From an uncultured Chloroflexia bacterium (GTDB taxonomy: Bacteria > Chloroflexota > Anaerolineae > Anaerolineales > Anaerolineaceae): a stretch of 64,000 nucleotides of DNA. Location: the NCBI GenBank assembly GCA_963748065.1, contig CAVVHL010000015.1, positions 422 through 64,421 of the forward strand, given 5' to 3'. Each line of letters starts with the position of its first letter. The stretch's first letter is position 1. The notes beneath the pieces were generated by a model. That model was not told where the DNA came from. It ran no database searches and was given only the letters and a program-made list of their open reading frames with translations. A program made the translations under genes and the position numbers. Below are positions 3,641 to 37,478 of this stretch, piece by piece.

Positions 3641-5029
3641 ATGAGAACCAAAAATCCAAATATCATCAAAGTGAGTTTCGTGTTTGTAATGTTTCTAATT
3701 CTGACGCTCGCGTCACCTTATATATTCAATATGAATGTTTCTGCTGACGCACAGGAAACCTGCCCGCATACCGGTGATTGGGTGAAAGTGGATGGAATCA
3801 ATGCCCAATCTTATAACTATTCCGCTCCGGAAGGAAAGCTTGTGGTGGAGGTTTGTTATAAAGCAGGAACGACTGTAAATTATTACAATGTGGATCCGGG
3901 ACAATCCAGTGTGACTGTTACAACCTCTGTCCCGAATCCCAATGATAATGCTTTCCAGGACATCAGCCATGCGAGCTTCCGTTTAGCGACTGAGCCTACC
4001 CCAGAAGTTGAAAATCCATTCGTCCGAATAACATATATCTGTCAAGCAGATGCCGCAGGTGTTGTTGAAGGTTATGGCCTCAACGTCCAACCTGGCGATC
4101 ATATCTGGCGGATTCGTCACAAATCAGGACCCGCGACTGACTTCTCGACTAACTTCCTTTCAGATGTTCAAGGGCATATCAATGTGGGTGAGACGTTATA
4201 TTTTGTCACACCACAGAGTGCAAATGGCGTGAAAGTAATCACATCACCGCTTGATAATCTTTATGGTGGTACGGCCTCTGTCTCCGGATCTATCTGCACA
4301 ATCCCCGAAGAACCCAAAGAAGAACAACCCTTCGTCCGTGTGACATACATCTGCCAGGCAGATGCTGCTGGTATCGTAGAAGGATATGGCCTCAACGTCC
4401 AACCTGGTGATCATATCTGGCGGATTCGTCACGAATCAGGACCCGCGACTGACTTCTCGACTAACTTCCTTTCAGATGTTCAAGGGCATATCAATGTGGG
4501 TGAGACATTATATTTCGTCACACCACAGAGCGCAAATGGCGTGAAAGTAATCACATCCCCGCTTGATAATCTTTATGGTGGTACGGCCTCTGTCTCCGGA
4601 TCTATCTGCTCAGTTCCCGAAGAACCCAAGGGTGGAAGCCTCACTCTCACAAGTGAATGTTTAGGGAATGGCAGTATCCAATGGACAGTGACCAATACTT
4701 ATGAGAAAGAAATGCCATTCAAATGGAAAACAACATCCAATGAAAGTGGAGAAGGTAGCGTTCCTGCAAATTCTTTTACAACTTTTGAGACAACAGTCGC
4801 AGGAAATGAACTTACTCTTTTCTACCTCGTTGATGATCAGGAAGCTGAATTGAGTGACGTAGCAGTCGTTTGTGACTCGCCAAAAACAACTGTTGATGCG
4901 CAACCTGACGTTGCAGCCGGCGGCATGGGACCTTCATTGGTCACCAGCCTGGCACCTTTCGTCACCGGTATCTTCGGTCTCGGTGCAGCATCTATTCTGA
5001 CAGTGAAAAGTAAAAAAGTTACCAAATAG
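3641..5029 (+). CDS. secreted modular protein (gene A): signal peptide, N-terminal domain, 2 x module X, 1 x module Y, 41-aa C-terminal tripartite tail
   Basis: 462-aa ORF with GGAGA 8 nt upstream. Signal peptide ends 'NVSA/DAQ'. Two 104-aa repeats 'FVR.TYICQADAAG.VEGYGLNVQPGDHIWRIRH.SGPATDF...GSIC'. One module 'ECLGNGSIQWTVTNTYEKEMPFKWKTTSNESGEGSVPANS' matches the repeats of 9127..14184. Tail is 'PDVAAGGMGPS', a hydrophobic helix, then 'KSKKVTK'. Confidence 0.85.
   Translation: MRTKNPNIIKVSFVFVMFLILTLASPYIFNMNVSADAQETCPHTGDWVKVDGINAQSYNYSAPEGKLVVEVCYKAGTTVNYYNVDPGQSSVTVTTSVPNPNDNAFQDISHASFRLATEPTPEVENPFVRITYICQADAAGVVEGYGLNVQPGDHIWRIRHKSGPATDFSTNFLSDVQGHINVGETLYFVTPQSANGVKVITSPLDNLYGGTASVSGSICTIPEEPKEEQPFVRVTYICQADAAGIVEGYGLNVQPGDHIWRIRHESGPATDFSTNFLSDVQGHINVGETLYFVTPQSANGVKVITSPLDNLYGGTASVSGSICSVPEEPKGGSLTLTSECLGNGSIQWTVTNTYEKEMPFKWKTTSNESGEGSVPANSFTTFETTVAGNELTLFYLVDDQEAELSDVAVVCDSPKTTVDAQPDVAAGGMGPSLVTSLAPFVTGIFGLGAASILTVKSKKVTK
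4019..4642 (+). repeat. 2 x 312-bp in-frame tandem duplication (module X) inside gene A
   Basis: Copies start at 4019 and 4331. Positions 4073-4297 vs 4385-4609 differ at 6 of 225 nt. The first 54 nt differ at 12 of 54. Confidence 0.95.
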
Positions 5030-5055
5030 TCTCAACTAAATAGTTAAACGGAAAA

Positions 5056-5111: not shown

Positions 5112-5906
5112 ATGAAAAAACATCTGAAGCATCTGATCTTCTTATTCGTGATCTTCCTGACAGCCTGTCGGTCAGCTATCCCGTCAGGGACGCCAATTTA
5201 TCGCGGGTCAGACCTTTCAGCGCCAACTCTATCCCCAACGATTGAACAAAGCCAGGCGGTCATCACTACTGAGGAACCGATAATGTCCACGCCCACGCCA
5301 GCAGCCTCGCCCACAGTCAATCCATTTTCTACGTTTTATGATTGTGAAATGCAGATCACATTTACATCAGGTCCTTTGGAATCCAAAAGTACGGATTTTA
5401 AGGTCCTGGGATTGGATTATTTTCAGGACAAAGGTGATAAATTTGAACCCGGAAAAGGGACAAGCATTTATTACGAAGCGCAACGTTATTTCATTATGCA
5501 TTCGTCCTTTGTAAATGGAAACATTCTCCGACCGATGCAAGCTGAATTCCTGCGAAAATATCTTGAATATTGGGGAGAATCAGGGTCAAAATATATCGAG
5601 GGCCAGATCCAAAACCTGATCGGATCAGAAGCCACCTGGGTTTGTGATGGCAAAGTGCTATTCAAAACAAAGATCGATGGCATTGTCCGGCTGTCTCACG
5701 AAGAGACCAATGATGTCTGGCTTAATCCCGAGAACCTGCAGCAGATTTTGTTCAATTCAAAAGTAGATAGTCCTGAACGGCTGGGAGATATGCCGCTTAC
5801 CAACGATCCGCACCTTTATATCGGGTTCTGTGGCTGGGGACCTCAATCTCTTGGTGATCTACGGTTTACGTATTTCCGCTATATTATTCGGTTCATAATT
5901 GAATAG
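5112..5906 (+). CDS. lipoprotein of unknown family (P1), paralog of 7822..8651
   Basis: 264 aa. Lipobox 'LTAC', a Ser/Thr/Pro linker, then a roughly 190-aa domain. Blocks shared with P2: 'FTSGPL', 'HS.F.NGNILRP', 'YLEYWGESG', 'W.CDG', 'IVRLS', 'GFCGWGP'. Confidence 0.8.
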   Translation: MKKHLKHLIFLFVIFLTACRSAIPSGTPIYRGSDLSAPTLSPTIEQSQAVITTEEPIMSTPTPAASPTVNPFSTFYDCEMQITFTSGPLESKSTDFKVLGLDYFQDKGDKFEPGKGTSIYYEAQRYFIMHSSFVNGNILRPMQAEFLRKYLEYWGESGSKYIEGQIQNLIGSEATWVCDGKVLFKTKIDGIVRLSHEETNDVWLNPENLQQILFNSKVDSPERLGDMPLTNDPHLYIGFCGWGPQSLGDLRFTYFRYIIRFIIE

Positions 5907-6016: not shown

Positions 6017-6366
6017 GAATTAAGAAATAGATTAATCACCTCTATAAAACCACTACTTTTAAGAAACATTACCATCAAAGACATAAATGAAGTAATTCAT
6101 GATCGATTAATAATATATTTTATATATACTTAATTTGTTTGATTATTTTTATAATTTTCCAAAACATACCAATTGATTTTCGGTTTTTTACAAACAACTA
6201 AAACAATTGTTATATCCGAATCATTACATTGAAATTAATATCACATTAATTGGTATTGATATTTTCTCATCATAAACTTATAATGATATTAAGTTTACGA
6301 TTAGTAAACATTTTTACTATATTAATTTCAATTTAGTGTTCAATCAATGTGAGTGAGGAGACTATT

Positions 6367-7741
6367 ATGAAATCAGGGAAAATCAAGTACCTAGCAATTT
6401 TCGGCGTATTGATGATCTTATTGATCATCGGTACCAGTGCAGTTTTTGCACAAGAAGACCGTGATGCACGAATCTTGACTGAAGTAAATACGTCAACGGC
6501 CAGCGAATTGCAGCATCGTCAATGAAAACCATTATAAAGTCGGAGATCACATTTATCTTCAGATCAAATCTGTTGTTCAATCCCCACAGTCAATTCGATT
6601 GGTGCAATTGACACAACCAACGGTCATCAGCATTTGTACCGGTAACTGGTGACGACTGCACAAATTCTGAGACCATATTGCTACGATACTGGTTATGTGC
6701 TTCAACCTGGCGATGTAGCAATATCTCCGCTTCAAAGCAACTGTATGGTTATAGGTGGTGATTCAAAAACTGAAAACTCCGAGTGACCATCATGAACGAG
6801 CCCAAAGACCAGCGGCGACGTTGTTATTCGTTCACATGCAATCGTGCAGCTGAATCAAAGATATATCGCTGAAATATCATGGCTCAGCCGTGCAAGCCTG
6901 ACGATCAATAACATTTGGTAGCAGAGACATTCTGTCCGACGATCTACCCAAAGGAATTCACATTAGCTATAGGCTTCATTCTCATTCTCATAGTTGTAGT
7001 TTGATTCAGAACACTCTGGAGGCGGAACAGTAACTGGAAATACAGATCCATGCTGTGAACCAAAGAGGAACAGCCCTTTGTTCGAATCACTTATATTTGT
7101 AAGGCTGAGGTGGCAGGGGTTGTAGAAGGATATAATTTAAACGTCCAACCTGGCGATCACATTTGGCGGATTCGGCAGAGAAAAGGCCCAGCGACTAACT
7201 TCACCACCAACTTCCTTTCTGATGTTCAAGGGCATATTGAAGTGGGTCAAACACTCTTCTTCGTCACACAGCAATTTGCGAATGGCGTGAAAGTAATCAC
7301 CTCACCTCTTGAAAATCTTTATAAAGGAACCGCTTCCGTATCAGGAGCAATTTGTAATGTTCCTGTAGAACCGGAGAAAGCATCTGTTTCATTCGTAACA
7401 GATTGTGACTATGTTGACGGTCAATCAATTAATACTGTTGAAATGATTATTGCCAACGCGACTTTGACGATTAACAAAGCTGATTATTCATCGAAAATGA
7501 CACATTAAAATCTAATTCCTCCGGTGACTATCTTATTCATGGGTCCGGTAAGCACGGACTTCATCAGTCAGGTGAGGGTATACTGACCATCGGTACCTGC
7601 AAACCTAAAGAAATTCCGGATGTTGCAGCCGGCGGTATGGGACCTTCATTCATCTCGATCGTTGCCCCAGCCCTACTAGCAGTCTCCGGTATCGCCTTGG
7701 TCTGGGTCCTGATCAAGAACAGGATTAAAGAGACTAACTAA
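6367..7741 (+). pseudogene. decayed paralog of gene A (gene B)
   Basis: A signal peptide 'MKSGKIKYLAIFGVLMILLIIGTSAVFAQE' is followed by a stop after 53 codons. Between 6530 and 7075 the coding-like stretches change frame about every 45 codons, and no ORF of 60 aa or more exists in any frame. One module X survives (ORF 7110..7508, with homology from about 7078). The 41-aa 'PDVAAGGMGPS...KNRIKETN' tail sits in yet another frame (7616-7741). Confidence 0.65.
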
Positions 7742-7759
7742 ACATCTAACCGATCTAAC

Positions 7760-7821: not shown

Positions 7822-8651
7822 ATGATTCGAAACAAAGCAGCTGTCATTCTTTTAAATATCATCTTTATTCTAAGTTCGGTGAGTGCGTGTACATCCGCCT
7901 CCACCGAACCTTTTAGTGTCGATTCCTCGCTTTTGGAAACATCTATCCCCCAAACATCGAAAGAGGTTGGGTCACCAGAATCAATCGGGGCAGAAATTGC
8001 CAATGCCACCTCTGAACCTGAGGACACGCACTTTCACATTCCCGAACTCTATATGGATGTGAAATGGTGATGAAATTCACCTCAGGTCCACTAAAAGGAA
8101 AGAAAAGCAAATTCACCGTCCTGACTGAAGATTATTTTGCCGATAAGGGCGAACGATTTTATCCCGGTGAAAAAACTGCCGTTTACTATGAAGGCCCGCG
8201 TTACCTCATTCTTCATTCCGCTTTCGCCAACGGAAATATCCTTCGTCCCCTCGAAGCGGAATTCATCCGGTATTATCTTGAATATTGGGGGGAATCTGGG
8301 ACTGAATTCATCCAGGATCGGATCGATGAGTTGATCGGCTCCAAAGTTGAATGGACCTGCGATGGCGTGATAATTCTGCAAACAGAAATCAATTCCATCG
8401 TCCGTCTTTCGGCAACCGCATCAAATGAAATATGGGAAGATCCAATATATCTCCGTCAAATCTTACTCAAACACGAGGGTAAAGCAGACGAATGGATCGG
8501 CGAGATGGATCCTTATTTTATGGATACCTTCTTCCTCGGCTTTTGCGGTTGGGGACCAGAGGAAAGTGGAGACGCTCGTTATTATTATTATCGTTACCTG
8601 ATCAATTTCAATATCCTACCTTCGGAAACATTCACAAAATCCGGTAAGTAA
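7822..8651 (+). CDS. lipoprotein of unknown family (P2), paralog of P1; one frame break near 8058
   Basis: ORF 7822..8070 (lipobox 'VSAC') and ORF 8064..8651 join if one T is restored in 'gatgtg'. That gives '...ELYMDCEMVMKFTSGPL', matching P1 '...FYDCEMQITFTSGPL'. Confidence 0.75.
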
Positions 8652-9126: not shown

Positions 9127-12100
9127 ATGATTTATCGCGCTAATAACAAGAAAAAAATAAGCACATTTGCTTTATTGGGTTTGTTCATGATCTTCTCCAT
9201 GCTGATGACTTCCACGGTGGAAGCACAGAATTTAGGAGATGGACAAATCACAGAGACCATCGCTGTTGCGAGTCCGAATTTTACGGACACGGTTGGCGAT
9301 GGTGTAACGCCAACAGATGAAAGTACACCATCATCTACACCTACAGACTCCTCCGGACTGGAGCTGACTCCGACAGAAGGGTCGACCACAGAAACACCGA
9401 CCCTCCCCGCCGAAGTTCCAACGATAATTGAGGGTCAGTCAACCGAAGGAACCCAACCGGCTGAGGAAACTCAAACACCTGACCCGGAACAAACGGCGGA
9501 GAGCACCGAAACGCCATCCGGAAATGAAGGTTCGAGCAATCCATCAGCAACGCCCCCAGTTAATCCTACTGAGACAGTGGAAAGCACCGAAACGCCATCT
9601 GGTGATGAGGGTTCGGGTGATCCATCAGCAACACCTCGGTTGATCCTACTGAGACAGAAGATGTTACTGATCCGTCAGCGACACCTTCGCCTGATCCCGA
9701 ATCGACCGAAGCGGTCGTCACTGAAGAGGGAACTTCAACCCCCGAAGATTCCACAGACCGTGCAAGTGGTTCAATTTGGACGACCAATTCAAGCTGCGCT
9801 CCCCAGGACATCAACCATTATGATATTGGTCAGCAAATCTGGATCCGTGCTGCGAATTTTCACCATAATAAAACCTATAACTGGTCTATTACAGAAGCCG
9901 GACAGGGTTTCCCGGTTGTCGTGAGTGGAACACAGAAAACCGATAATAACGGTTATGTCTGTTTTTACGCGTATACCTTCACAGGTTCTGACACGATCAA
10001 TAATCCTTACAAGGCAAATTTTGGCTATAAAAACGACAATTTCAATGTAAACGAACCTAAACCCGAAGACAGCCCATTGGCACTGTCCGCCCAATGCCAG
10101 CTCGATGGCAAACATCAATGGTCGGTCGGCAATCCCAACGACTATGACATCAATTTTTACTGGGAATCAACCAGTGGTGAAAACGGCTTCGGATCCGTTC
10201 CTGCGAATGGAAGCACATCCTTTACAAGCGATAAAAGCGCTCAAACTGTGACCGTTTATTACCAATTCAGTGGTAGGACTGTACACAGCGAGACTGTCTC
10301 TTTATCCGTTGATGCGTGTACTGAACCGATTGATCTCCAATTGGATTATGAGTGCGGTGACGGTGGCAGTCACATCTGGACTGTTACAAATGACAACGAC
10401 TTCGCAATGGATTTCACCTGGGATTCAACCACCGGTGATTTTGGCAGCGGACAGGCTCCTGCAGGTGGAACCGCAACCTTCGAGACCGGCAGCGATGCCC
10501 AAACTGCAACGATCCATTATCAATTCCCCACGACTGTCCGGACTTGGAACCACGATCAGAAATCCGTCAGTATTTACGCTGAAGAATGCAAAGTTCAAGA
10601 AAACATCAATCTCGAACTTGATTATGAGTGCCAGGATGACGCCAGTCACCTCTGGACGGTCACGAACAGCAATGATTTCGCAATTGAATTTACCTGGTAC
10701 TCGAACAAAAATGGGCAGCACGGCAGTGACACGGTTCCCGCAAACGACACCGCCACTTTCACAACTAACAATAAAGCCCAGACCGTCACAATCAGTTATA
10801 AATTCCCTGAGAACTCTCGCTGTGGTGGTGGTTGTGGAGATCCCGACATCATCAAGCTGAGTGTCAGTGCTGAAGAATGCAAGATTGAGAACAAAGACCT
10901 TCAATTAAAATACGACTGCCAGGATGATGGCGATCATCTTTGGACAGTTACGAACAATAATGGTTTCGCCATTGAATATGAATGGACATCCAATGTGGCC
11001 GGTCAGCATGGCAGCGGCACGGTTGGTGCAAACAGTACAGACACCTTTACTACCAACAGCGCAGCCCAAACAGTGACCGTCAACTGGTCCTTCCCGAGTG
11101 GTGACCGCTGCGGCACAGGACGATGCAGTCCTGAACTCCAATCCGTCAGTATTGAAGCCGAAATCTGCAAGGTCGCCATCGTGGACCTCAGTCTCGCGGT
11201 GGAATGTATGCCAAACGGCCAACACAAATGGATCGTTTCAAACAGCAACAATTTCCCGGTCGATTTCAATTGGGAATCCACCGATGGCAGCAGTGACACT
11301 GGCATTCTGTCTTCGCAAAAGGTACGGCTTTCTTTACCACAAGTTCAATTGCCCAAACAGCAACAATCCACTGGGATGACAATGGTGAGGATAAAACCGC
11401 AACAAAATTCGATGATGCCTGTCAGGTTCCGCTTGAAAAACTGGAACTCTCCGTGATCTGTTTATCGAATGGCACCCATCAGTGGACAGTAACCAACAAT
11501 AACGACTTTGCATTAGACTTCAATTGGTCATCAACCACCGGCGAGGGCGATAGTAGAACAGTAAATGCAAACTCAACACGCACATTCACAAGCAATATCA
11601 GCAGCCAAACCGTAACGGTCAAATATACCTATGCTAATGTTGAAAGAACACTCACATTGCAGGATGAAACCTGCAGCGCTCCTGAGCTTTCACTTTCATA
11701 CATTTGTGGTTTTCCTTCGGACACTTCCCTCTTATGGAAAGTGACCAATAACAATGACTTTGCAGTTAAATTCTCCTGGAGTGTTGCCGGTGAAAGTGAA
11801 AGTGGGAGTGGATCAGTTGCAGCAAACAGTACTGCCAAATTCTATACAAGCCTCGGCAATAAAACCATCGAACTCTTCGTTTTGGGCCAAAAAGTCGATC
11901 AGGCAGATGGCGGGGAATCCTGCTATTACTGACCTGACGCTGGAATATGAATGTCTTGAAAACGGCAATCATTATTGGACCGTAAGCAACGACAATGATT
12001 TCGATCTATCCTTCGCCTGGTCATCAACCTCTGGTGCCAGCGGCTTTGAAACAGTTACTGCCCATAATTCAGTGAACCTGACGACCGACATCACTGCTCA

Positions 12101-14184
12101 GACCATGACCATCATTTATGATTATGGCGAATTACCGGAGAGGTCCATCAGCGTTGAAGCACAAGTTTGTGAAGCGCCCAGCCTTCTTTTGACCTATATC
12201 TGCGGCTATCCCTCAGATACGGAACTCATCTGGCGGGTACGGAACGATCATGACTTTGATGTATCCTTCACCTGGGACGTATATGGATCGACCGAAAACG
12301 GAAGCGGCGTCGCCGCAGCGAATTCGGATACATTCTTCACAACTTCCCTGGGTAACAAGACGGTTCGGATCTTCGTCTCCGGCCAACTGGTCAACACGAA
12401 AGCCGGTGGTTCGACCTGCAAGGTCGATCTTGAACTCGATTATTCCTGCCTTATCACTGGTCTGCACGAATGGACCGTTGTCAACGGGAACACATTTGAT
12501 CAGGAATTCGACTGGTCATCAACCTCCGGTGAAAGCGGCACATTGGTTGCGCCGGCAAATGGATCCATAACTTTCATCACCAACCGTGATGCTCAGACAA
12601 TGACGATCACCTATCAAAACTACGTACATCCTGAAAAGACGGTCTCCATAAATGGTGAGGTCTGCAAGTCGCCCACCCTCGAACTGTCCTATGAATGTGG
12701 ATATCCAACCGATGCTAATCTCTATTGGTACGTGACGAATCCTTACGACGTCGATATTGCTTTCAACTGGGAAGTCGTCGGTGATAACGAGAGCGGCAGC
12801 GCAATAGCAAAAGCTAATTCTGATACCTTATTCACCACCTCGACCGGTCTCAAGACCGTCAAGATCATGGTGGAAGGTTACGAAGTGGATTCACAGCAAG
12901 GCGGCGAAAGCTGCATGGTCAAATTGGACCTTTCTTACAGCTGCCTCAGCAATGGCACGCAGGTTTGGACGATAACCAATACCAACAAAGACGATCAAGA
13001 TTTCACCTGGACGTCAACCTCTGGCGCCAGTGGATCGGGTACCGTTCTGGCAGGTGATTCATACAAGTTCACAACGGACAACATCAGTCAAACGATCACC
13101 CTGAATTACCAGTTCGGACCTTTCCCGGCGCAAACCACGACAGCTTCAGGCGAAGTCATGTAAAGTCTCAACCCCCGAACCGCCGTCCTTCTCTTCATAC
13201 AATAGCAGTGGAACCTGCATCGATTGGCTGGTATTCCACACAATGCGTGACGGCAATTTGGAAGTCTATCGCCTGGATGGCATCGAGGGAGTCGGCGACT
13301 ATGTGCTGACCAACCTTTCCAAGAGTGATGCAGTTGACGAACGGCCAAGCCGCTCACCGAACAACGCCTGGGTTGCATTCCAATCCGATCGTGACGGAAA
13401 CTTCGAGATTTATAACACAGATAGCAATGGTAACGCTCAAATGCGGCTGACCGACAATGAAGCCAGCGACATCAACCCGATATTCAGTCCCGACAATACG
13501 CATATCGCCTTCCAGAGCGACCGCAATGGTAACTGGGACCTCTACCTGGTTGACCGGGTTTCAGGTAAAGTCACCCAATTGACCGATAACGCAACTGACG
13601 AGATCAATCCGTTCTTCTCCTCGGATCAGAACTGGCTCGTCTATCAAAGCAATCAAAACGGTAACTGGGATGTCTACATGCTAAATCTTTCAACAGGCAT
13701 GGAATACCAGGTCACTGACAGCGCTCAAGATGAAGTTGATCCCGCCTGGTCACCGACCAGTCAGAAGATCGCTTATCTGTCCCCTGTGGATGGCATCCTG
13801 CAGCTCTTCGTGATCGACATTGACGGCAATAATAATGTACAGCTCACCGATGGTAATGGCGATACCCTGAATCACGCCTGGTCACCGGACGGTACGCGGC
13901 TCGCTTATCAGTCCTCTCGTGACGGGAACCTGGATATTTACTCCTACGATCTCCGTGACGGAAAGGAATATCGAGTGACCACGGACGCCAATGATGACAT
14001 CGGCCCGACCTGGGATTGCGGTGGCGTCAACCTGGCTTACACAGGCAACCCCAACGGCGGCAATACGGATATCTTCCAGGTTTTCTGGAAAGGCGGCGCA
14101 TCAAGCCACCTGACGAACAACCCGGCCATCGATAAATGGTCAGAGTGGTCGCCAACAAAAGAGACCGCTAGCCGTAACAACTAA
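9127..14184 (+). CDS. giant secreted repeat protein (gene C, about 1685 aa reconstructed): signal peptide, Thr/Pro/Glu linker, beta-rich domain, 12 Cys-bracketed modules, TolB-like (PD40) beta-propeller
   Basis: ORFs 9127.., 9921.., 11453.., 11754.. and 13243.. form one reading frame with single-base breaks near 9633, 11305, 11920 and 13157. Protein-like sequence continues straight across each junction in the next frame. The C-terminus has repeated 'SPD....IAFQSDRDGN.(D/E)(I/L)Y' units typical of TolB/PD40 blades. Confidence 0.8.
9499..9680 (+). repeat. 81-bp in-frame tandem repeat (about 2.2 copies) in the acidic Thr/Pro linker
   Basis: Unit 'ESTETPSG(N/D)EGS(S/G)(N/D)PSATPPV(N/D)PTETV' starts at 9499 and again at 9580. 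Confidence 0.85.
10075..13165 (+). repeat. 12 tandem ~85-95-aa modules 'L.L.YEC..dG.H.WTVTN.NDF...F.W.S..G..GSG.v.AN.t.tFtT...aQTvTi.Y ... C'
   Basis: Read directly from the translation. Each module begins and ends with a Cys. From module 6 onward two subtypes alternate. Confidence 0.85.
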
Positions 14185-27229: not shown

Positions 27230-27301
27230 GCGGGCGTCGCCAAGTGGTAAGGCAGTAGCTTCCCAAGCTACTATTCGCGAGTTCGAATCTCGTCGCCCGC
27301 T
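27230..27301 (+). tRNA. tRNA-Gly (anticodon CCC)
   Basis: Folded by hand. 7-bp acceptor stem GCGGGCG/CGCCCGC. Anticodon stem GTAGC/GCTAC with loop TT-CCC-AA. T-arm GCGAG-TTCGAAT-CTCGT. Discriminator T. No encoded CCA. Confidence 0.9.
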
Positions 27302-27782: not shown

Positions 27783-30658
27783 ATGGTATTCATGTGCCTA
27801 AATAGATCTACTTCTCGTTCATCTTCATTCTTGTTGATCATTACATTGTTATTTGCGTTGACCTTTTCCGCCCAGGATATCATACCTGTTCAAGCGGCAG
27901 GGGTTCGCCATGTCAAACCAGCTGCAAGCGGAACGGGGGATTGTTCCAGTTGGGAGGATGCCTGTACATTACAAACCGCGCTAACCGACGCGATCAGTGG
28001 TGATGAAATTTGGGTCTTTGCCGGGACTTATACCCCTGGTCCACTTCGCACGGATACCTTCCAACTAAAGGCTGGCGTCGGTCTCTATGGTGGTTTCTTT
28101 GGGACTGAGACGGTACGCGATGATCGTATCCCAACAGTTTTTATTACCACCCTCAGCGGTGATATTGGCACGCAAGAAGATAACAGCGACAATTCATATC
28201 ACGTTGTCACAGGCGTAACCGGGGCGACCAGCGCGACGATTCTGGATGGCTTCACTATCACTGGGGGAAATGCTAATGGCGCTACTAGTCCCAATAATTG
28301 CGGTGGCGGGATGTACAACCCTACCAGCAGTCCAACATTAGATGAACCTTACTTTCATCGGCAATTCGGCTGGCATTTGTGGCGGCGGGATGACCAACAC
28401 ATCAAGCAGTCCGTGGCTTACGAACGTTACTTTTGGCAATAATTCGGCTGGGTCGAGAGGTGGCGGGATGTATAACTTTACTAGCAGTCCGCATCTTTGG
28501 AACGTTACCTTCAGCGAAAATTCGGCTGGGTCGGAAGGCGGCGCAATGTACAACGACAACCAGCAGTCCTAACTTTTGGAATGTTACCTTTAGCGATAAT
28601 TCGGCTTGGATCGGAAGGCGGCGGGATGTATAACTTTACCAGCTATCCAATAATCTATAACACGATCTTCTGGGGTAATACAGCTCCTAACGGTGCGCAA
28701 ATTTTCAACGCCACTGCTGGGGCTCCCATTGTAAACGATAGTGTCGTGGAGGGCGGGTGCCCTGCTTTAAGCACTTGTACGAACATCATCATTACTGACC
28801 CCCATCTCGGTCCATTGGGAGATTACGGCGGTTTCACCCCAACTATCCCGCTCATGATGGGTTCATCTGCAATTGACGCGCTCCCAACTGGTACGAATGG
28901 CTGCGGCACAACTATCACAACCGACCAGCGTGGGGTGGAACGTCCGCAAAGCTCTGATTGTGACATCGGCGCGTTTGAGCAAGATGACTTCACCGCACCC
29001 AGTGTGATCTCATTCAACCTGAAGACACCGGCTACAAATCCCACTAATGCGGAGACGCTCACCTTCCTGGCTACATTCAGCGAACGGATGGCGGATGTGG
29101 ATATTGCTGATTTCGTTAATAACTCTTCAAGCACTGCAACAGTCACCGCTGTCTCCTATGTTACCAACGGCATGTATGATGTGACAATCTCTGGTGGCGA
29201 TTTGGCAAGTTTCAATGGTGAGGTCAACCTCAATTTTAGTACGTCAGCAACCATTACAGATCTGGCCGGTAATGTTCTGCCGGTTACCGAACCTGGCATT
29301 GACCAGACCTACGAGATTGATACAATTGCACCGGACACGCAAATTGACACCCAGCCTGCCAATCCGAACAACAGCACCAGTGCCAGTTTCAACTTCTCCA
29401 GTGCAGATGTCTCATCCACGTTTGAATGTTCACTGGAAGGTGGTGTTTATGCTGGCTGCACTAACCCCAAGAACTACACCGGGCTAGAAGAAGGTTCACA
29501 CATCTTCGCAGCCCGCGCCAAAGACACGGCGGGCAATGTGGACGCCACTCCGGCTTCCTACACCTGGGTGGTCGATACAACTGCACCAACGATCACGATC
29601 ACCGAACCTGACACCAGCGCAGCGCTGAGCAAAACCATCACAGCCAGTGCTTCGGACGGCACGTTGACGATGAGCAATACCACCGGTATAACCTGTGATG
29701 GCACCTTGACGTTTGTTACGTATTCCAGCCAGATATTTTCATCTGAGTTCTGATAACGGCATAAAGGTATGTTATAAGGCAGTAGACGCTCTCGCGAATA
29801 CCGCTTACAACCTGTCTGAGGCTATCTCAGGCATCGATACAACTGCGCCGACGATCACGATCGCCCAACCTGACACCAGTCCAGCGCTGAGCAAAACCAT
29901 CACAGCCAGTGCTTCGGACGGCACGTTGACGATGAGCAATACCACCGGTTCAACCTGTGATGGCACCTTGTCGTTTGTTACGTATTCCAGCCAAACATTT
30001 TCATCTGAGTTTGATAATGGCACAAAAGTATGTTACAAGGCAGTAGACGCTCTCGGGAATACCGCTTACAATCTGTCTGAGGCTATCGAAGGTATCGATA
30101 CCACTGCACCAACGATCACGATCACCGAACCTGACACCAGTCCAGCGCTGAGCAAAACCATCACAGCCAGTGCTTCGGACGGCACGTTGACGATGAGCAA
30201 TACCACCGGTATAACCTGTGATGGCACCTTGACGTTTGTTACCTATTCCAGCCAGGTATTTTCATCTGAGTTTGATAACGGCATAAAGGTATGCTATAAG
30301 GCAGTAGACGCTCTCGCGAATACCGTTTACAACCTATCTGAGGCTATCACAGGCATCGATACAACTGCACCGACGATCACGATCACCGAACCTGACACCA
30401 ATGTAGCGTCATACAAAACCATCACAGCCAGTACGCCGGACGGGACGTTGACGATGAGCAATACCACCGGTTCAACCTGTGATGGCACCTTGTCGTTTGT
30501 TACGTATTCCAGCCAAACATTTTCATCTGAGTTCTGATAATGGCACAAAAGTATGTTACCAGGCAGTAGACGCTCTCGGGAATACCGCTTACAATCTGTC
30601 TAACGCTATCGAGGGCATAATTCTATTTACCATATTCCTGCCGGTGTTTCTGCGCTGA
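27783..30658 (+). CDS. secreted parallel beta-helix (Pmp-type repeat) adhesin-like protein with Ig-like domains and 4 x 87-aa repeats; five frame breaks
   Basis: Signal peptide present. Repeats 'GGGMYN.TSSP.L.NVTF..NSAG' span frames 27783.., 28342.., 28433.. and 28497.. (breaks near 28339, 28560, 28608). 'TDQRGVERPQSSDCDIGAFE' block. 'DT.AP' Ig-like units. Extra C at 29750 and 30534. The reconstructed frame ends '...NAIEGIILFTIFLPVFLR*' at 30658. Confidence 0.7.
29574..30618 (+). repeat. 4 x 261-bp tandem repeat in a-b-a-b order (522-bp super-repeat)
   Basis: Units start at 29574, 29836, 30097 and 30358. Copies 1/3 share 'ITCDGTLTF...DNGIKVCYKAVDALANT'. Copies 2/4 share 'STCDGTLSF...DNGTKVCYKAVDALGNT'. 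Confidence 0.9.
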
Positions 30659-31208
30659 AATCTCTGCCAAAAATATGCAGGGAGACTATCCCATCTACCT
30701 GTCTCACTGCCAAAAGGCCTTTCCAGTAATACATATCAACGTTGGCTGTTGACCTTACCCCAAAATATATACCAGCCATTATGATAGTCAAACCGACTGA
30801 ACATGGGTGGGTTGAATTAAGATAGCCATAGGCACAGGGGGTAATATCATAGCGAACCATGTGGTCGAACCTTGATGAAATCCTCACCTCAATAAAGCAG
30901 AATATTCCGATAAATTCGAAGTAAATTTGTCGTAACGAATTATGCTCAAGGTCCTTGAGTAGGCATAAAGAGATTCGAATCAATTATCTCGCGAATCATG
31001 ACATGATTCCAGTAAGTATATAAATAAGGTACTTTATTTAGCATGCATTTTTGTTGATAAAGTCCAACAGAAAAATCTATATGAATTCGGTATATAATTA
31101 GATATATTAAATCCCACACCATCAAGATATAAAAGACACATAAACGCGAATGACTGGGGTAATGAGCAGCCCAAGGTACCGCCTAAGGCTTTACGAGGGG
31201 ATGTTAAA

Positions 31209-33455
31209 ATGGAAATATTAGAAAAAGATATCCTGGAACTCGCCGAGAGCATCATCAATACGATTCGTCACCCTTTGATCGTTTTGGATAAATGACCTCA
31301 GGGTAATCACTGCCAGCCGTTCCTTTTATGAATTCTTTAAAGTAAAACCTGAAGAGACTATAGGGCAACTTGTCTATGACTTAGGCAATAATCAGTGGGA
31401 TATCCCCAAGCTACGAGAATTATTGGAATCCATCCTGCCCAATAAATCACACTTTGATAACTATATTGTTGAACATAATTTTGAAGCTATCGGCAGGCGT
31501 ATCATGGTATTAAATGCCAGCCAGATGCAAGGGTTGCCAGAAAAGGAACAGGTCATCCTTCTGGCCCTCGAGGACATCAGCCAGCGCAGATATTTTGAAG
31601 TTAAATTGGAAAAAGTCCCAATACCATTGGAAGTAGATAATAAATCCATATCAAGATCTCTTGAATACACCCAAGGTATTTTAAACACTATTCGTGAAAT
31701 CTCTAATTGTTTTAGATAATGATCTTAGGATATTGTTTGCCAGCCGTTTCTTTTATGAATTCTTTAAAGTAAAACCTGAAGAGACAATAGGGAAGCTTAT
31801 TTATAACATAGGCAACAATCAGTGGGATATGCCCAAGCTGCGGGAACTGCTGGAATCTATTCTCCCCCATCAAATAACCATTGAAAACTATGAGCTTGAA
31901 CTCGATTTTATGACCATCGGCAAGCGTATCATGCTTATAAATGCCAGGCAGATCCAAGGGTTGCTAGGAAAGGAACAGATCATCCTTCTGGCCATCGAGG
32001 ACATCACCGAAGCGAAACAAGTGGAGGAGGAAAGAATCAGGAGTTTGGCAAGATTCCCTGACGAGAACCCCCACCCGGTTTTAAGGATATCCAAAGAGGG
32101 AAAAATCATTTATGCTAACGAACCCAGCAGAGCTATGCTAAATATGTGGGGCAAATCAGTCGGAGAAAATGTACCTACAAATTGGAAAAATAATATCTCC
32201 AAATCGTTTAAATCTGGTGATATCCTGGAATTTATAGAAATTGTTGAGAGCAATACTTTTTCATTTATCCTTTTACCAATTACAGAAATGGATTATCTCA
32301 ATGTCTATGGGAAGGACATAACCGATACGCGATCGCGCATATCGACTTTTAAATTCCCTCAACGAGGCTTCTACTGCCATGGAGTCAATTCTGGATTTTG
32401 AAGAGGTTTTCAGCGTGATCAATAAGCAACTCAAAGAGTTTGGGTTTTTTACAGTGCTATTTCAGGTTGATGAAACCCAAACCAACATTTCACCACGATT
32501 TCTTTCCATGGAATCAAAAGTATTCAAGGCTTTAGAAAAACTTCTGGGGTTAAAAATGTCGGATTTATGGATTCCGATCGAATCGATTGACGTTTTTAGT
32601 CATGTTGTACAGGAAAAAGAAACTGTTATTTCGGAAAATATATTTCAGTTAATTAAACAGATGATGCCCCACCATTTTAAAAAGATTGTGACTATTGTTC
32701 CAAAGTATCTGAAAGAAATGAATGGTATTTTTGCTCCTCTGATAATTGAAGATGCTGTTAAGTGGGTCCTCGGAGTATCCTCGAAGGACCTTACCAAGGC
32801 AGATATCCAAGCTATCACAGCCTTTGCTCATGAGATGGTAAACACCTGGAATAGAACCAAATTAATACAGGATCTGAAAAAAACCATAGAGGGAACCATC
32901 CACATACTCGCAGCAACCGTTGAAACACGTGATCCGTATACAGCCGGCCATCAGGAAAATGTATCTGAACTGGCTGTCGCCATTGCTAATGAAATGCATC
33001 TTACTGAACAGCAGGTTGAAGGCATTCGTATGGCTGGATTGATCCACGATCTGGGAAAGATCCAGGTTCCAGCAGAAATTCTAAGTAAACCTGGAAAGAT
33101 ATCTGAACTTGAATTTGAATTGATCAAAATACATCCCCAGGTCGGTTATGATCTTTTAAAAGATATTGAGTTCTCATGGCCGATAGCCGATATAGTTCAT
33201 CAACACCATGAGAAGATGGATGGCTCTGGTTACCCGCAGGGGTTGAAAGGTGACGAGATTTTAATTGAGGCCAGGATCCTGACTGTGGCAGATATCGTTG
33301 AGGCCATGTCCTCCCACCGACCATATCGGCCTGCATTAGGCATTAAAAAGGCTTTGGATCAAATCAAGCAAGATAGGGGTGTTCTATTGGATACCCATGT
33401 CGTTGATGCTTGTTTGAAGATATTTAAGGAGGGGTATCAGTTACCGGAGGATTAA
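31209..33455 (+). CDS. PAS-PAS-(PAS/linker)-HD-GYP signalling protein (c-di-GMP phosphodiesterase type); three frame breaks
   Basis: GAGGGG lies 8 nt before ATG 31209. Two 142-aa PAS units 'LIVLD.DLR......FYEFFKVKPEETIG.L.Y..GNNQWD.PKLRELLESILP'. C-terminal 'HDLGK' and 'HHEKMDGSGYPQG'. Breaks near 31286 (aaa where the paralogous unit has aa), 31697 and 32330. Confidence 0.75.
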
Positions 33456-34049
33456 TAATTTCAAGCTTTCTGATCAGGGTGAAGTGATTACTAAATTTAG
33501 GCGAATGGGGGCAATCGCACGGTATTTTTCAAATAAAGAATTTACTTGCGGTATATCAAAAGATAATAATTTCTATGTTATTTTAAGATAAAAGTTATCG
33601 AAACCACACCCTCACGGACTTAGATAAATATCCATATTTGTATACAGAATCATAATCTTCAATATCCTTAGATGCGAACTTCAAACCTGACAGAAGATAA
33701 CTCTATTTTTATGGGATGATATTTTTATGCTAGGGCTCGCGACCGAGCGAATTTTGGAGCGATTCCTATAGGGTTATATTCTTTCATTTATCAGAGAATA
33801 TTTGTATACCAATGGTTTGCGTTACCTGCAGACGGTTTTATCAGACAACTCCTTTGCAATCAATACCTTGCAGGTGAAATGCCTGACCATGCAGTTCAGT
33901 ATCTAGGGGGATTGTGCATTATTAAAAGATTAGTATTGAAATTGTCGTCACGTATGCATATCTAATATATGATATATTGTTATTATATTTAATCGGATCC
34001 CACAAAAGATACATCGAACACAAACACTTAATTTTATGGGGAGGTTTGA

Positions 34050-34799
34050 ATGGTCCATAAAAAATTTTTTATTTTCATTATGTCAATGATTCTGCAAGTA
34101 TTCATGTTAATGGGCTGCAGCTCAACTCCGGAACAGGTTATGCCAACGACCGAACAAACATCTGTTCCTACGGACCAAACGTACCCTACTATTGAAGAAA
34201 CCTCTCTCCCGGCAGATCCAATTACTCCTCCGGTTGAGGACAATTCTCCTACACCGGAAGTATCTAAAGTATGGTCAGATGACTTCGAGGATGAGAATTT
34301 GGACGGGTGGGATACTTGGAATGCAGATGGTAGTTTTTATGTAGAAAACGGCATATTAACATCAACGCTTAGAGGTGATTTATCTCACCTAAGCTCAATA
34401 TTATTTGGAACCTGGAGTTTCGATCTATATATAGATCCTAATGATTCAGGAGCGACGCATGAGTTTCGTTTTACAGAAGGGGTAACCAACTTTCAGAATT
34501 TAGAAATAAGACAATTCCAAAATACTCAGATATGGATCACCACCCAAAACGATTACTCTGAAACATTTCGTACCTATGTGGATTTGGGGGAAAAATTAGA
34601 GGGTTGGCACCATTTTGATATAACGAAAGGTGAGAGCGGTCTGATTAAGGCTTACCTGGATGGTGAATTTCTATTCGGGCATTTCGATGAAAGGTCATTC
34701 AATTCTGAAATCATTAATCATCATGTATTGTTGTAAAGGTCCTGTGTTGGACAATCTGGAAGTTCAAGACCAGATTATTGAAATCTTACCAAATGAATA
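34050..34799 (+). CDS. secreted lipoprotein, possible concanavalin/LamG-like jelly-roll domain; possible frame break near 34710
   Basis: Lipobox 'LMGC' and a Thr/Pro linker. 'WSDDFEDENLDGWDTWNADGSFYVENGILT' is typical of jelly-roll lectin-like domains. The +1 frame continues 'IIMYCCKGPVLDNLEVQDQIIEILPNE*' to 34799. Confidence 0.5.
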
Positions 34800-35152
34800 A
34801 CACAAGAAAAGTGACCTGACTTCATACATGTAACAATCTCTATGAGAGACTAGCGAGTTGGATTTGGTTAGGTCGAAAAAAGATTTTCACGGATTTATTT
34901 GTTGTGTCACACGCCTGAACGTTTAGGTACACATATAGACGGAATACACGTAGTCAGAAGAATTGAGTTGTAATAGCCGGTTAATCAACTTGCTTTAAGA
35001 GTAACAATCTGTACGACGTAAAAACCCCTGGATCATTTTTAATTGATTTCAGTAGGTCTCCAATATAAACGCGACACCGATTCATTGACAATATTAGGAC
35101 ATTAGCTCCACAATATTTTAAATTAAACAATTTTATCCAAAGCGTCCCAGCG

Positions 35153-35201
35153 GCTTTCTAAGCCACCAGGATGCCGCCTAACAAACGGAGGCGCATTTTG
35201 C
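35153..35201 (+). repeat. 49-nt repeat, copy 2 (partner at 27317..27365)
   Basis: gctttctaagccaccaggatgccgcctaacaaacggaggcgcattttgc. The flanks are unrelated to those of copy 1. Confidence 0.9.
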
Positions 35202-35336
35202 TTATAGTGGGTGATCGGCGCTGTTAGTTAAAATCAAAACTAATTCAGAAATCTTTTGAATAGCCGGTTTGGTTTATGGAATGATTTTCTTTATAATCAC
35301 AAATGAAAAGAAAGTTGTATCCCGATCTGGGAAACC

Positions 35337-35864
35337 CTATAGCTCCAACTCCACTAATAACACCCAAGCATTTTGTGATGCTGAACCTAAAAGAAGAATA
35401 ATGATTAATACAATACCATATAAACTGACTTCTTTCTGGAGCAAAATTCCTACTGAAAGTAAAACTAATGCCCCCAGACAAATAATGGGCATAATAAATC
35501 TCGAAGTAATATCGAGCTTTAGCCCTTTCTTTTGTTTATTTCTAGCTTTTCGTTGTTGAAGAATTGTATTAATTCCACCCACAATTCCTAAGATCATTAT
35601 TAAAATTCCTAAACCAATTGAAGTAATATTTGGAATGAGGAAAAGTACAGCCAAGATAAAAATATAAAAAAAGCTATTAAAGGTAAGCGCTGCAAAAAGA
35701 CGTAAATTTCCAGAGAATTTATTCCGAAACAGTTCTACATTTATCGAAATTGCAATAAATAATAATCCAATCAGAGTAACGCCAGCTGTTCCAGTTAGTA
35801 AATAGAAAGTTTCCCATGTGTGTATCGCTTCCGTAAACGTATCCATTTGTTCTTCTTTCTGCAA
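35337..35864 (-). CDS. hypothetical integral membrane protein (about 5 TM segments)
   Basis: 175-aa ORF with five long hydrophobic segments and a central basic loop 'QQRKARNKQKKGLK'. I recognise no family motif. Confidence 0.5.
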   Translation of the reverse strand: MQKEEQMDTFTEAIHTWETFYLLTGTAGVTLIGLLFIAISINVELFRNKFSGNLRLFAALTFNSFFYIFILAVLFLIPNITSIGLGILIMILGIVGGINTILQQRKARNKQKKGLKLDITSRFIMPIICLGALVLLSVGILLQKEVSLYGIVLIIILLLGSASQNAWVLLVELEL

Positions 35865-36254
35865 TCCTGCCTATTTAGAATGATCTAATTCCCCTTCTTT
35901 AAAAGCAGCTTTAGCCGTCTAAATTTTCCTTCTCCTTGACACACTCTCCTTTTGTTAAAGCAGCTTGCTGGCCTCTTTCACTTTCTTGCTTTGACCGATC
36001 TAGATCTTTTTCTCTCGAAGTTTGGTGATGATTTGTTCGGAGGGGATAAAATTGTCTTCTTCCCATTACTAACCTCCAATTTCTCCAAATACTATCACAA
36101 TATCTGGATCAGTTCTTAATAATCAGGTCAATTTTACATATAATTTTGGATTGGTCGGTGCAAAATGGAGAATTCATTTTTGCATTCACTCTAAAACTAT
36201 TTTAGTATGGTTTTAGAGCGGCAACAAATTTGTATTTTTCCTATTAATATGTCA

Positions 36255-37478
36255 TCAATTGGACACCTTCTGGTAACATGGACTTTCATCATCCAAATCT
36301 GAATGCCTGCTTTTATCTCCCCGAGCGGTAATAAATGCACCTACCATAAATAGGCTAGATGTGACACCTAACGCCCACGGACCAAGAGACGAAAGCAGAA
36401 CACCGCCCAAACCGGGTGTAGCTATTTGGGCGAGGGTTTGCATGGAATTTGCTATCCCCAACGTGCCGCCGACATCTTCCTTATAGACAGCTTTTGTGAT
36501 TTGACTGGTGAGAACGGTATTAAGAATTCCAGCACTCAATGCGATGGGAGCCAATACCACCAGCAACAGCCAAATGTTCTTTGTGAGCCCCCAGGCTAGC
36601 AATGTCACAGCCAATAAAATAACGCTGGAGGTGATTAATTGACGCTCTTTGAATTTGTCCGTTAGCTTACCAATTGCAAACCCTTGAACAAGCACCGAAA
36701 GTAGACCTACATAAGTTAAAACCAGTCCTGTATTTTGCACATCGAGATTCAAAACTGATTTTGCATATAAAGCAAAATTCGATTGGAAAAGTGTGAACGC
36801 AAAACTGTAAAATAAGCGTATCATCAACAACGGCCCAACACACGGCCGGCGCAATTCATCGACCAGGTTGGCAAGGTTGAACCGTGTGTGTGGATTGATG
36901 CGCATTTGCTGACGTTCTGAGGGCGGCAACGATTCTGGCAACCAGATGATGATGGCAATCAGATTTAAGAAGGAAAGTACAGCAGCAACAAAGGCAGGGA
37001 CACTCAATCCAATCGTGCTTAAAAATCCTCCCATAACAGGGCCGATGATGAAACCTAGTCCGAAGGCTGCCCCGATTAGCCCCAATCTTTTCGCTCGATC
37101 TTTAGGTTCTGAAATATCCGTAATATATGCTCGTGCTAGAGAAGTGTTGCCTCCCAAAAGTCCATCCACTGCCCGGCTGAGGAAGATCATCCATAGGCTG
37201 TTTGCAAAACCGAGAAGCAAAAAACCAAGAACCGTCCCTGAGACAGCCAGGATCAAGAGAGGTCGCCTGCCGTAGCGATCTGATAACCGCCCAATGATGG
37301 GCGCTGCGATTAACTGTCCTATGGCATTAACTGTACCAAGTAATCCAACTAGCGTGAGGGTTGCGCCGAAATCGCTGGCATAAAAGGGAAGTAGGGGAAG
37401 GATCAGGCTGTAGCCCAGGAGATCCAGGAATACAAAACCAAAGATCAGGATGAATTGTTTGTTTTCAGATTTTTTCAT
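36255..37478 (-). CDS. MFS transporter (drug:H+ antiporter-like)
   Basis: Start taken at 'MKKSENKQFILIFGF' (ATG 37478). MFS motif A 'GRLSDRYGRRPLL'. About 12 hydrophobic segments. Confidence 0.8.
   Translation of the reverse strand: MKKSENKQFILIFGFVFLDLLGYSLILPLLPFYASDFGATLTLVGLLGTVNAIGQLIAAPIIGRLSDRYGRRPLLILAVSGTVLGFLLLGFANSLWMIFLSRAVDGLLGGNTSLARAYITDISEPKDRAKRLGLIGAAFGLGFIIGPVMGGFLSTIGLSVPAFVAAVLSFLNLIAIIIWLPESLPPSERQQMRINPHTRFNLANLVDELRRPCVGPLLMIRLFYSFAFTLFQSNFALYAKSVLNLDVQNTGLVLTYVGLLSVLVQGFAIGKLTDKFKERQLITSSVILLAVTLLAWGLTKNIWLLLVVLAPIALSAGILNTVLTSQITKAVYKEDVGGTLGIANSMQTLAQIATPGLGGVLLSSLGPWALGVTSSLFMVGAFITARGDKSRHSDLDDESPCYQKVSN

Follow-up and report, generated by a model that had tools for sequence, protein, structure and literature searches.

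Genes and tails at the locus

The window, a stretch of 64,000 nucleotides (nt) from contig CAVVHL010000015.1 of an uncultured Chloroflexia bacterium (family Anaerolineaceae), carries two adjacent genes, A and X1, which, together with the C-terminal tail of the gene A product, are the subject of this study. Gene A (3641..5029, + strand) is an intact open reading frame (ORF) of 462 amino acids (aa) coding for a signal peptide, four β-sandwich domains, and the tail. The tail is encoded by 41 codons counted from the Pro to the stop (4904-5026, with the stop codon reaching 5029) and has three parts on the + strand: the motif PDVAAGGMGPS (4904..4936), which is the proposed recognition and cleavage site, the hydrophobic segment LVTSLAPFVTGIFGLGAASILTV (4937..5005), which is predicted to form a membrane helix, and, in the translation, the basic C-terminal end KSKKVTK with the stop codon (5006..5029). 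X1 (5112..5906, + strand) starts 82 nt past the stop codon of gene A, with no terminator-like site between the two genes, and codes for a 264-aa lipoprotein composed of the lipobox LTAC, a Pro/Thr linker, and a domain with a predicted sortase fold.

The AlphaFold2 (AF2) model of the gene A product (pLDDT 77) contains a signal helix (residues 6-29), four β-sandwich domains, a disordered stretch (414-435), and a terminal helix (434-456) that corresponds to the hydrophobic segment of the tail. The motif falls inside the disordered stretch, a low-confidence linker of the model. The Foldseek search with this model returned only generic Ig/FN3-like adhesin and macroglobulin chains. As the domains are β-sandwiches and the matches are of the Ig/FN3-like adhesin type, the gene A product is, according to the model, a beads-on-a-string surface protein. 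A tandem duplication at 4019-4629 (a 312-nt unit in 2.0 copies, 92% identical by TRF) doubles one β-sandwich module and gives two of the domains. The close relative P0104 (339 aa) is ~120 aa shorter and may carry a single copy of this module.

A second tail of the same kind is encoded at 7616..7741 of the + strand and consists of PDVAAGGMGPS, the hydrophobic segment FISIVAPALLAVSGIALVWVLI, and KNRIKETN with a stop codon. The translation of 4784-5035 ends with AQPDVAAGGMGPSLVTSLAPFVTGIFGLGAASILTVKSKKVTK and that of 7496-7747 with EIPDVAAGGMGPSFISIVAPALLAVSGIALVWVLIKNRIKETN, each followed by a stop codon, which reproduces the equal lengths of the tails (41 codons each, 4904-5026 and 7616-7738) and the motif shared by genes A and B given in the preliminary description of this DNA. 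The two motifs are identical at 11/11 aa and at 30/33 nt, the differences being CCT/CCG, GAC/GAT, and GGC/GGT; the near-identity noted earlier thus stands. The rest of the two tails (31 codons including the stop) is identical at 48/93 nt (~52%), in agreement with the earlier remark that the part coding for the transmembrane (TM) helix has diverged relative to the motif. The synonymous matches between the two motifs (7/10) are only nominally unusual by our own post hoc binomial estimate (p ~0.03). No third in-frame copy of the motif was found in the six frames of the whole window, and no known RNA family of Rfam overlaps the motif coordinates.

The gene B remnant (6349..7741, + strand) was delimited by tblastn with the intact orthologues P0135, P0141, and the B gene of locus L001. 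A B-type signal peptide lies at 6349-6525 (frame 1 match 6367-6510), an A-like module at 7062-7487 in frame 3, and the last domain with the tail at 7487-7741 in frame 2, while no recognizable coding was found with these orthologues from ~6525 to 7062. The pieces are thus spread over three frames, just as the preliminary description, which spoke of a gene broken by frame changes, had it. Apparently, gene B is a pseudogene, or the assembly contains frame errors. It is followed by X2 (7822..8651, + strand), a frameshifted paralogue of X1, in which the signal peptide, the lipobox VSAC, and the linker (7822-8070) are in a different frame from the catalytic domain (8064-8651). Two extra bases (TA) near 8058 would account for the shift, and the alignment shows that X2 (P0093) retains the His, Cys, and Arg residues discussed below. 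In the 8040-8085 region, TATAT stands where TAT is expected, between the signal/linker and catalytic parts. This is not a homopolymer-type error and, taken with the breaks in gene B, it makes the whole B–X2 cassette look inactivated. The state of the window, with cassette A–X1 intact and B and X2 both disrupted, fits a tail gene and an X gene that work as a unit.

Further downstream lies gene C (9127..14184, + strand), a giant modular paralogue of gene A (~1650 aa) with no tail and with a PD40/TolB-like propeller at its end. It has at least four frame changes in the window, and its repeated module W.V.N...F.W is the same as that of the last domain of gene A. The sharing of gene A modules in the absence of the tail, already pointed out for gene C, was seen in other paralogues as well. 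Intact orthologues of gene C (1420-1656 aa) adjoin X genes in other genomes.

The tail family in other genomes

A tail profile of 41 positions was built from 15 tails and used for an exhaustive search of 1.84 billion representative proteins at E ≤ 1e-3. It matched 38 clusters, and every match ends no more than eight residues from the C-terminus of the protein, which places the pattern far beyond chance. The full-length matches begin with signal peptides. A word-indexed search with the same profile gave a single 40-aa fragment, which was uninformative. The profile matches pooled with the neighboring genes from ~60 fetched loci (numbered with L below) yielded 83 distinct tails of 38-46 residues, all of them from Anaerolineaceae/Brevefilum-like genomes.

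The consensus of these tails is P-D-x-[P/A]-A-G-G-x-G-P-S, followed by a hydrophobic stretch and a Lys/Arg-rich end. Among the 83 tails, the residues found at positions 1 to 11 are P (84%), D (100%), a variable residue, P (59%) or A (40%), A (99%), G (100%), G (98%), a second variable residue, G (94%), P (100%), and S (93%), and P is also found at position 18 (89%); the frequencies at positions 2, 5-7, 9, and 10 are somewhat inflated, as the detection pattern fixed P10 and limited the others of these positions to small residue sets. The motif is therefore not confined to the two genes of the window, and its conservation at the amino acid level in dozens of genomes, always at the C-terminus, supports the original view of the tail as an unnamed and separable signal-like unit. 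A Cys residue that marks the end of the last β-sandwich domain precedes the PD motif by 5-20 residues in almost every tail-bearing protein (for example GTCKPKEIPD, VVCDSPKTTVDAQPD, and GVCEEDAEPD).

A DNA pattern scan starting from the motif was performed on 185,579 species genomes. Of the 119 stretches among the matches listed, 114 lay out of frame and were chance matches in genomes rich in GC. The other five were in-frame loci with a helix and a basic end, and all came from metagenome-assembled genomes of Brevefilum/Anaerolineaceae, a lineage placed in Chloroflexota, Anaerolineae. No prior description of the tail motif, or of a sortase-like lipoprotein in Chloroflexota, was found in the literature searched.

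The preliminary description had also proposed that selection or gene conversion acts on the motif at the nucleotide level. When 14 orthologous and paralogous motifs were compared codon by codon, the orthologues showed synonymous variation (GCA/GCC/GCT, GGC/GGT/GGA/GGG, CCT/CCC/CCA). As the synonymous sites of the motif are free to vary, selection acts on the peptide and not on the DNA, and we rejected nucleotide constraint or gene conversion as the main explanation. Within single genomes, the variable position 8 is M/M in the window, L/L (from different codons) in L001, and S/S/S (TCA, AGT) in L132. A co-variation of the paralogous tails at this position was considered and rejected, since L134 and L135 have M in tail A and L in tail B.

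The tails were compared with the known sorting-domain models, as the preliminary description had proposed. Neither the window tails nor the whole gene A product matched any NCBIfam/Pfam sorting domain at E ≤ 10. Among the 15 family tails, LPXTG_anchor (TIGR01167) gave weak matches in three. The case inspected, the divergent tail of P0122, reached 17.3 bits (cutoff 15.9) over profile positions 10-33 of 34 only, which take in the TM and basic part but leave out the pentapeptide, so that this match is uninformative on the cut site. No match covering the LPxTG pentapeptide (TIGR01167/PF00746) was obtained for the window tails or for the P0122 tail. GlyGly-CTERM (TIGR03501) did not match any of the 15 tails at E ≤ 10. 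PEP_CTERM gave one sub-threshold match to the TM part of a divergent tail (15.1 bits, cutoff 16), MYXO-CTERM gave one sub-threshold match among the 15 tails (E 0.35), and neither PGF-CTERM nor the other NCBIfam sorting models rose above their curated cutoffs on the tails. A significant match to an existing model, named in the preliminary description as the result that would refute its view, was thus not obtained for the motif. In its second half, the tail is of the type seen in sortase substrates.

All tail-bearing proteins found group by BLAST into a single family of modular proteins, and each locus examined has one to three of the genes. The tail would thus be part of a dedicated enzyme–substrate pair for one cargo family and not of a general sorting route for diverse cargo. 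Many tail loci are flanked by genes for GT2 glycosyltransferases, an ABC-2 exporter, and dTDP-rhamnose synthesis, which indicates a cell-envelope neighborhood.

The downstream partner X and its relatives

X is built from a lipoprotein signal (LTAC in X1, VSAC in X2), a linker rich in Pro and Thr, and a domain of ~190 aa. The homologues form 96 clusters, all labelled 'hypothetical', and the sole named one comes from a Chloroflexota genome. The signal peptide and the lipobox Cys that form the membrane tether are conserved family-wide, with LPAM_1 matches in six members. In one subgroup, the TPR-type X, an N-terminal cytoplasmic TPR region is present and a TM helix replaces the lipobox. Since the lipobox or the TM helix is followed by the Pro/Thr linker, the X domain is predicted to be extracytoplasmic and membrane-tethered, which is where a sortase works. 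One homologue, P0037, carries the precomputed Pfam accession PF27998.1, which may stand for a very recent family that spans part of X.

The alignment of 51 X members revealed the invariant residues H130, S131, E145, R148, W176, C178, S195, C240-G-W, R251, and R256. The AF2 model of X1 has a pLDDT of 83.5, with a core above 90. When this model was compared with the PDB using Foldseek, ranks 1-17 were all sortases (E 3e-5 to 0.1, probability up to 1.0), and the next matches had E ~1. The best matches were to S. aureus SrtB (4lfd, 1ng5; E 3e-5, probability 1.0), and the others in this group included the class B sortase Spy0129, SrtE, and SrtA. In the model, H130 comes after a strand, the penultimate strand ends with C240, R251 lies just before the last strand, and R256 lies within it, so the order and strand placement of His, Cys, and Arg are predicted to be as in sortases. 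The order of the secondary-structure elements, including the helices that separate the middle strands from the Cys strand, presumably resembles that of SrtB. The eight-stranded sortase β-barrel is a prediction with a divergent match, and on the model X is best described as a sortase-fold family invisible to sequence searches. The earlier statement that no sortase-like gene is visible in the window must accordingly be revised, as the downstream neighbor of each tail gene is predicted to have the sortase fold with invariant His/Cys/Arg.

The linkage of the tail genes and the X genes was then followed in other genomes. In all five in-frame loci among the DNA-scan matches listed, X lies beside the tail gene. 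CP069394.1 and two ENA assemblies share the synteny of the window (sigma factor, radical SAM, CN hydrolase, phosphomutase, tail gene, X). CP069394.1 also has a second, B-type cassette of tail gene and X, while the two ENA loci have a second X gene and no B-type tail gene. On an ENA contig of 3.2 Mb, there are three tail genes and two X genes. The scan of metagenomes with the X profile added 45 further loci. By hand tally, a tail gene is found on the strand of X for ~35 of the ~38 lipoprotein-type X genes with enough flank, usually 44-93 nt upstream of X and sometimes just downstream. The tail–X pair has been retained through extensive divergence, with X identities down to ~40%.

The TPR-type X genes (L124:5001-6194, L130:8001-9200, L131:9130-10329, L166:6398-7579, L168:4791-5987, and L172:5679-6884) showed a different distribution. 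A tail gene is nearby in three cases (L138, L142, L166), and four distinct arrangements lack one (L124/L125, L131/L140, L168, L172). Genes of this type often adjoin giant PD40 genes resembling gene C and genes for DUF7507/CLIPPER proteins that lack the tail.

In other lineages, more distant homologues of the gene A body (P0111-P0113, P0121, P0123, P0127, P0131) share its N-terminal domain and a repeated FVRxTYIC module, and they end with LAETG, LAATG, or LPETG, a helix, and basic residues. In the MAFFT alignment, [P/A]-A-G-G of the tail motif falls in the same columns as A-[E/A]-T-G of these homologues, and the P/A alternation at motif position 4 parallels LPxTG versus LAxTG. Since the motif aligns with LAxT↓G, the scissile bond is, by analogy, likely A-G↓G, after the first Gly.

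These LAxTG-type homologues are followed after 0-21 nt by a gene for another protein, Y (~227 aa, with an N-terminal TM helix), at L126:2893-3573, L128:1093-1779, and L178:6231-6917, with a partial copy at L123:6276-6473. A gene A homologue variant ending with TDTAGGNTSS is also followed by Y. The Y protein has the motifs QLHxHN and ISTCLE..GDxRL..GW. It resembles X in its genomic position, similar size, His...Cys...Arg order, and C-x(4-7)-GDxR close to the C-terminus, whereas it differs from X by the TLxTC-like ISTC motif and the TM anchor. The comparison of X with Y by hhalign gave a probability of 0.2%, and no Pfam, PDB, or hhalign link was found between Y and sortases. From its motifs, Y looks like a second cryptic sortase-like family and could be a second hidden branch of sortases. 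Gene A-type cargo is thus always found beside a dedicated His/Cys/Arg enzyme and its signal differs by enzyme type. As the signal varies with the type of the neighboring enzyme, the tail can be seen as the substrate signal of that enzyme.

A putative sortase-like pair and its alternatives

We consider it somewhat more probable than its opposite that the tail and X represent a dedicated sortase-like transpeptidase paired with a new class of C-terminal sorting signal, as the sequence and model data suggest. The tripartite layout, preceded by a Sec signal peptide and a flexible linker, is that of sortase-type signals. The top 17 PDB matches of the X1 model are all sortases, with His/Cys/Arg invariant, and the tail genes and X genes adjoin. 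The homologues of the gene A body end with LAxTG-type signals in the same aligned columns, 3/15 tails weakly match LPXTG_anchor over the TM and basic part, and the motif is near-invariant in the 83 C-terminal tails while its synonymous sites vary. All these observations argue for the sortase reading. According to it, the gene A product would be exported by its N-terminal signal peptide and retained in the membrane by the tail. X, as a lipoprotein tethered to the outside of the membrane, would then act on the tail, cutting the exposed AGG/GPS motif through C240 after the first Gly of A-G↓G, and would transfer the β-sandwich protein to an envelope acceptor, for example, peptidoglycan or a wall polysaccharide. 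The cleavage, the cut site, the acceptor, and the role of X as the processing enzyme are all inferred here. The candidate substrate peptides for X1 (residues 66-264) would be QPDVAAGGMGPSL and TVDAQPDVAAGGMGPSLVTS. The more specific proposal, that X is a new sortase-fold branch which is lipoprotein-anchored, has a GFCGWGP active site, and is specific for PDx[P/A]AG↓GxGPS, is tentative, its chances being a little short of even.

Several observations weigh against the sortase reading. The Foldseek TM-scores (template modeling scores) of X1 versus sortases are modest (0.36-0.51), and the TLxTC motif of sortases is absent from X, which has GFCGWGP instead. The Pfam Sortase model (PF04203) matched 0/51 aligned X members at E ≤ 1, X1 and X2 gave no Sortase match even at E ≤ 10, and X has no Pfam or NCBIfam match at all. 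The X profile found no match among the PDB sequences, and hhalign of X with S. aureus SrtB, whose sequence was verified, gave a probability of 0.6%. As for the linkage, lipoprotein-type X genes without a nearby tail gene exist (L136, L131/L140, and the second X of L002), and the adjacency is partly inherited synteny, so that the loci are not independent observations. Given the TPR subgroup beside tail-less proteins, the X domain may act on further substrates or on different ones. The frameshifts in the window may be assembly errors, as another gene (38876-41729) is also split.

The strongest alternative, unlikely in our opinion though of some weight, is that the tail is an uncleaved C-terminal membrane anchor with the motif serving as a juxtamembrane hinge or docking site, for example, for X, which would be a structural partner or a shedding protease and not a transpeptidase. 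An invariant His/Cys/Arg set in a predicted sortase fold would be hard to explain for a passive partner, and the homologues carry true sortase signals (LAxTG) at the same position. Moreover, strong conservation of a Gly/Pro-rich motif directly outside the membrane is a typical mark of sorting signals that are processed. The anchor explanation does account for the fact that a TM helix and a basic end alone suffice for anchoring in the membrane and for the lack of sequence similarity between X and sortases, and the conserved Pro at tail position 18, in the helix region, indicates conservation beyond a cleavage motif.

It is still less probable that the tail is processed by an enzyme encoded elsewhere, such as a rhomboid/rhombosortase-like or exosortase-like enzyme, a CPBP-type protease, or a canonical sortase. 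In that case, X would serve a different purpose at the locus, for example, the cross-linking or polymerization of gene C-like and DUF7507 proteins, and the TPR-type X genes beside tail-less DUF7507 and PD40 proteins in L124, L131, L168, and L172 agree with such a role. The Gly-Gly before the TM helix does recall GlyGly-CTERM, the rhombosortase signal to which the preliminary description had likened the tail, but the GlyGly-, PEP-, PGF-, and MYXO-CTERM models had no significant match on the tails, no rhomboid-family gene was seen near any of the ~60 loci, and sortase, rhomboid, and exosortase Pfam domains are absent from the 20 ORFs that were scanned in the 19-44 kb part of the window. The tight spacing of the tail gene and X (44-93 nt) is the rule, which also speaks against an unlinked enzyme; the likeness of the tail is instead to sortase signals.

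Finally, plain paralogy with gene conversion, by which the identity of motifs A and B would come from a recent DNA exchange and not from function, is very improbable: the agreement at 30/33 nt in the window versus ~21/33 in L001, as well as Met at position 8 of both window motifs versus Met in A and Leu in B of the relatives L134 and L135, would fit it, but the same amino acid motif occurs in 83 distinct tails with free synonymous variation, and the A/B duplication is older than the divergence of the genomes carrying both (B-type tails are kept in L001, L121, L134, and L135), so that at most a short conversion tract is superimposed on protein-level selection.

Compared with the known systems, the tail–X pair is closest to sortase/LPXTG (MEROPS C60). 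The tail substrates have a Sec signal peptide and the sequence of motif, TM helix, and basic end, and X has a domain of ~190 aa that is predicted to be tethered to the membrane outside the cytoplasm and to form a β-barrel, with the His...Cys...Arg order. The nearest structural class is class B (SrtB/NPQTN, encoded beside the substrate IsdC), and, like SrtB–IsdC, X and the tail gene lie side by side as a dedicated pair. The alignment of the motif with LAxTG of the homologues recalls class E (LAxTG). Unlike sortases, X has no detectable sequence similarity to them, is anchored by a lipobox Cys and not by an N-terminal TM helix, and has its putative active-site Cys in GFCGWGP and not in TLxTC. 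Unlike LPXTG, the tail signal is the 11-residue PDx[PA]AGGxGPS, with Gly in the place of Thr, and it abuts the TM helix. The host lineage, Anaerolineaceae (Chloroflexota), also differs from those of the known sortase systems compared.

With GlyGly-CTERM/rhombosortase (TIGR03501/TIGR03902), the tail shares Gly-Gly before the C-terminal TM helix and basic cluster as well as the restriction to a single lineage. Rhombosortase systems occur in proteobacteria and handle numerous unrelated cargo proteins, whereas the tail has a single protein family as cargo and a neighbor with a predicted sortase fold. The exosortase/PEP-CTERM and archaeosortase/PGF-CTERM systems, including single-target pairs, likewise combine a lineage-specific tripartite signal with a dedicated enzyme and were found by the same kind of comparative genomics. 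The exosortases and archaeosortases themselves span the membrane several times and are not related to the sortase fold.

Sorting signals and their enzymes decide the content of the bacterial surface, and each new pair (sortase, exosortase, archaeosortase, rhombosortase) has opened a part of envelope biology, sortases having also become a protein-engineering tool. The tail described here is absent from the curated libraries and is paired with a family annotated as 'hypothetical' and recognizable by its fold only, which shows that counting sortases by Pfam profile can overlook entire branches. The system is limited to a single lineage and a single cargo family, and the steps of its mechanism beyond sequence and fold are inferred. 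Anaerolineaceae, filamentous bacteria that abound in anaerobic digesters, have a virtually unstudied cell surface, and the tail–X pair gives a concrete handle on their envelope assembly. If the sortase reading is true, Anaerolineae filaments would have their own covalent chemistry for surface-protein anchoring or for fiber or sheath assembly, sortase-type anchoring beyond Firmicutes and Actinobacteria would be commoner than profile-based censuses indicate, and a new ligase specificity (Ala-Gly↓Gly) would be at hand.

A few features elsewhere in the window were also recorded. The split gene at 38876-41729 (- strand) codes for a xanthine-dehydrogenase-type molybdopterin enzyme in two overlapping ORFs, with MoCoBD_2 divided between them by a frameshift or an assembly error. 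The stretch 30000-37000 has a low GC content (0.37-0.42 versus ~0.50 on either side), contains PAS and HD-GYP-type (HD_5) genes together with ORFs without a Pfam match (34050-34736 and 35337-35864), and may be an acquired island. Two adjoining ORFs of 219 and 418 aa without a Pfam match occupy 27783-29753, and the sole tRNA gene of the window (27230-27301) lies just upstream of them.

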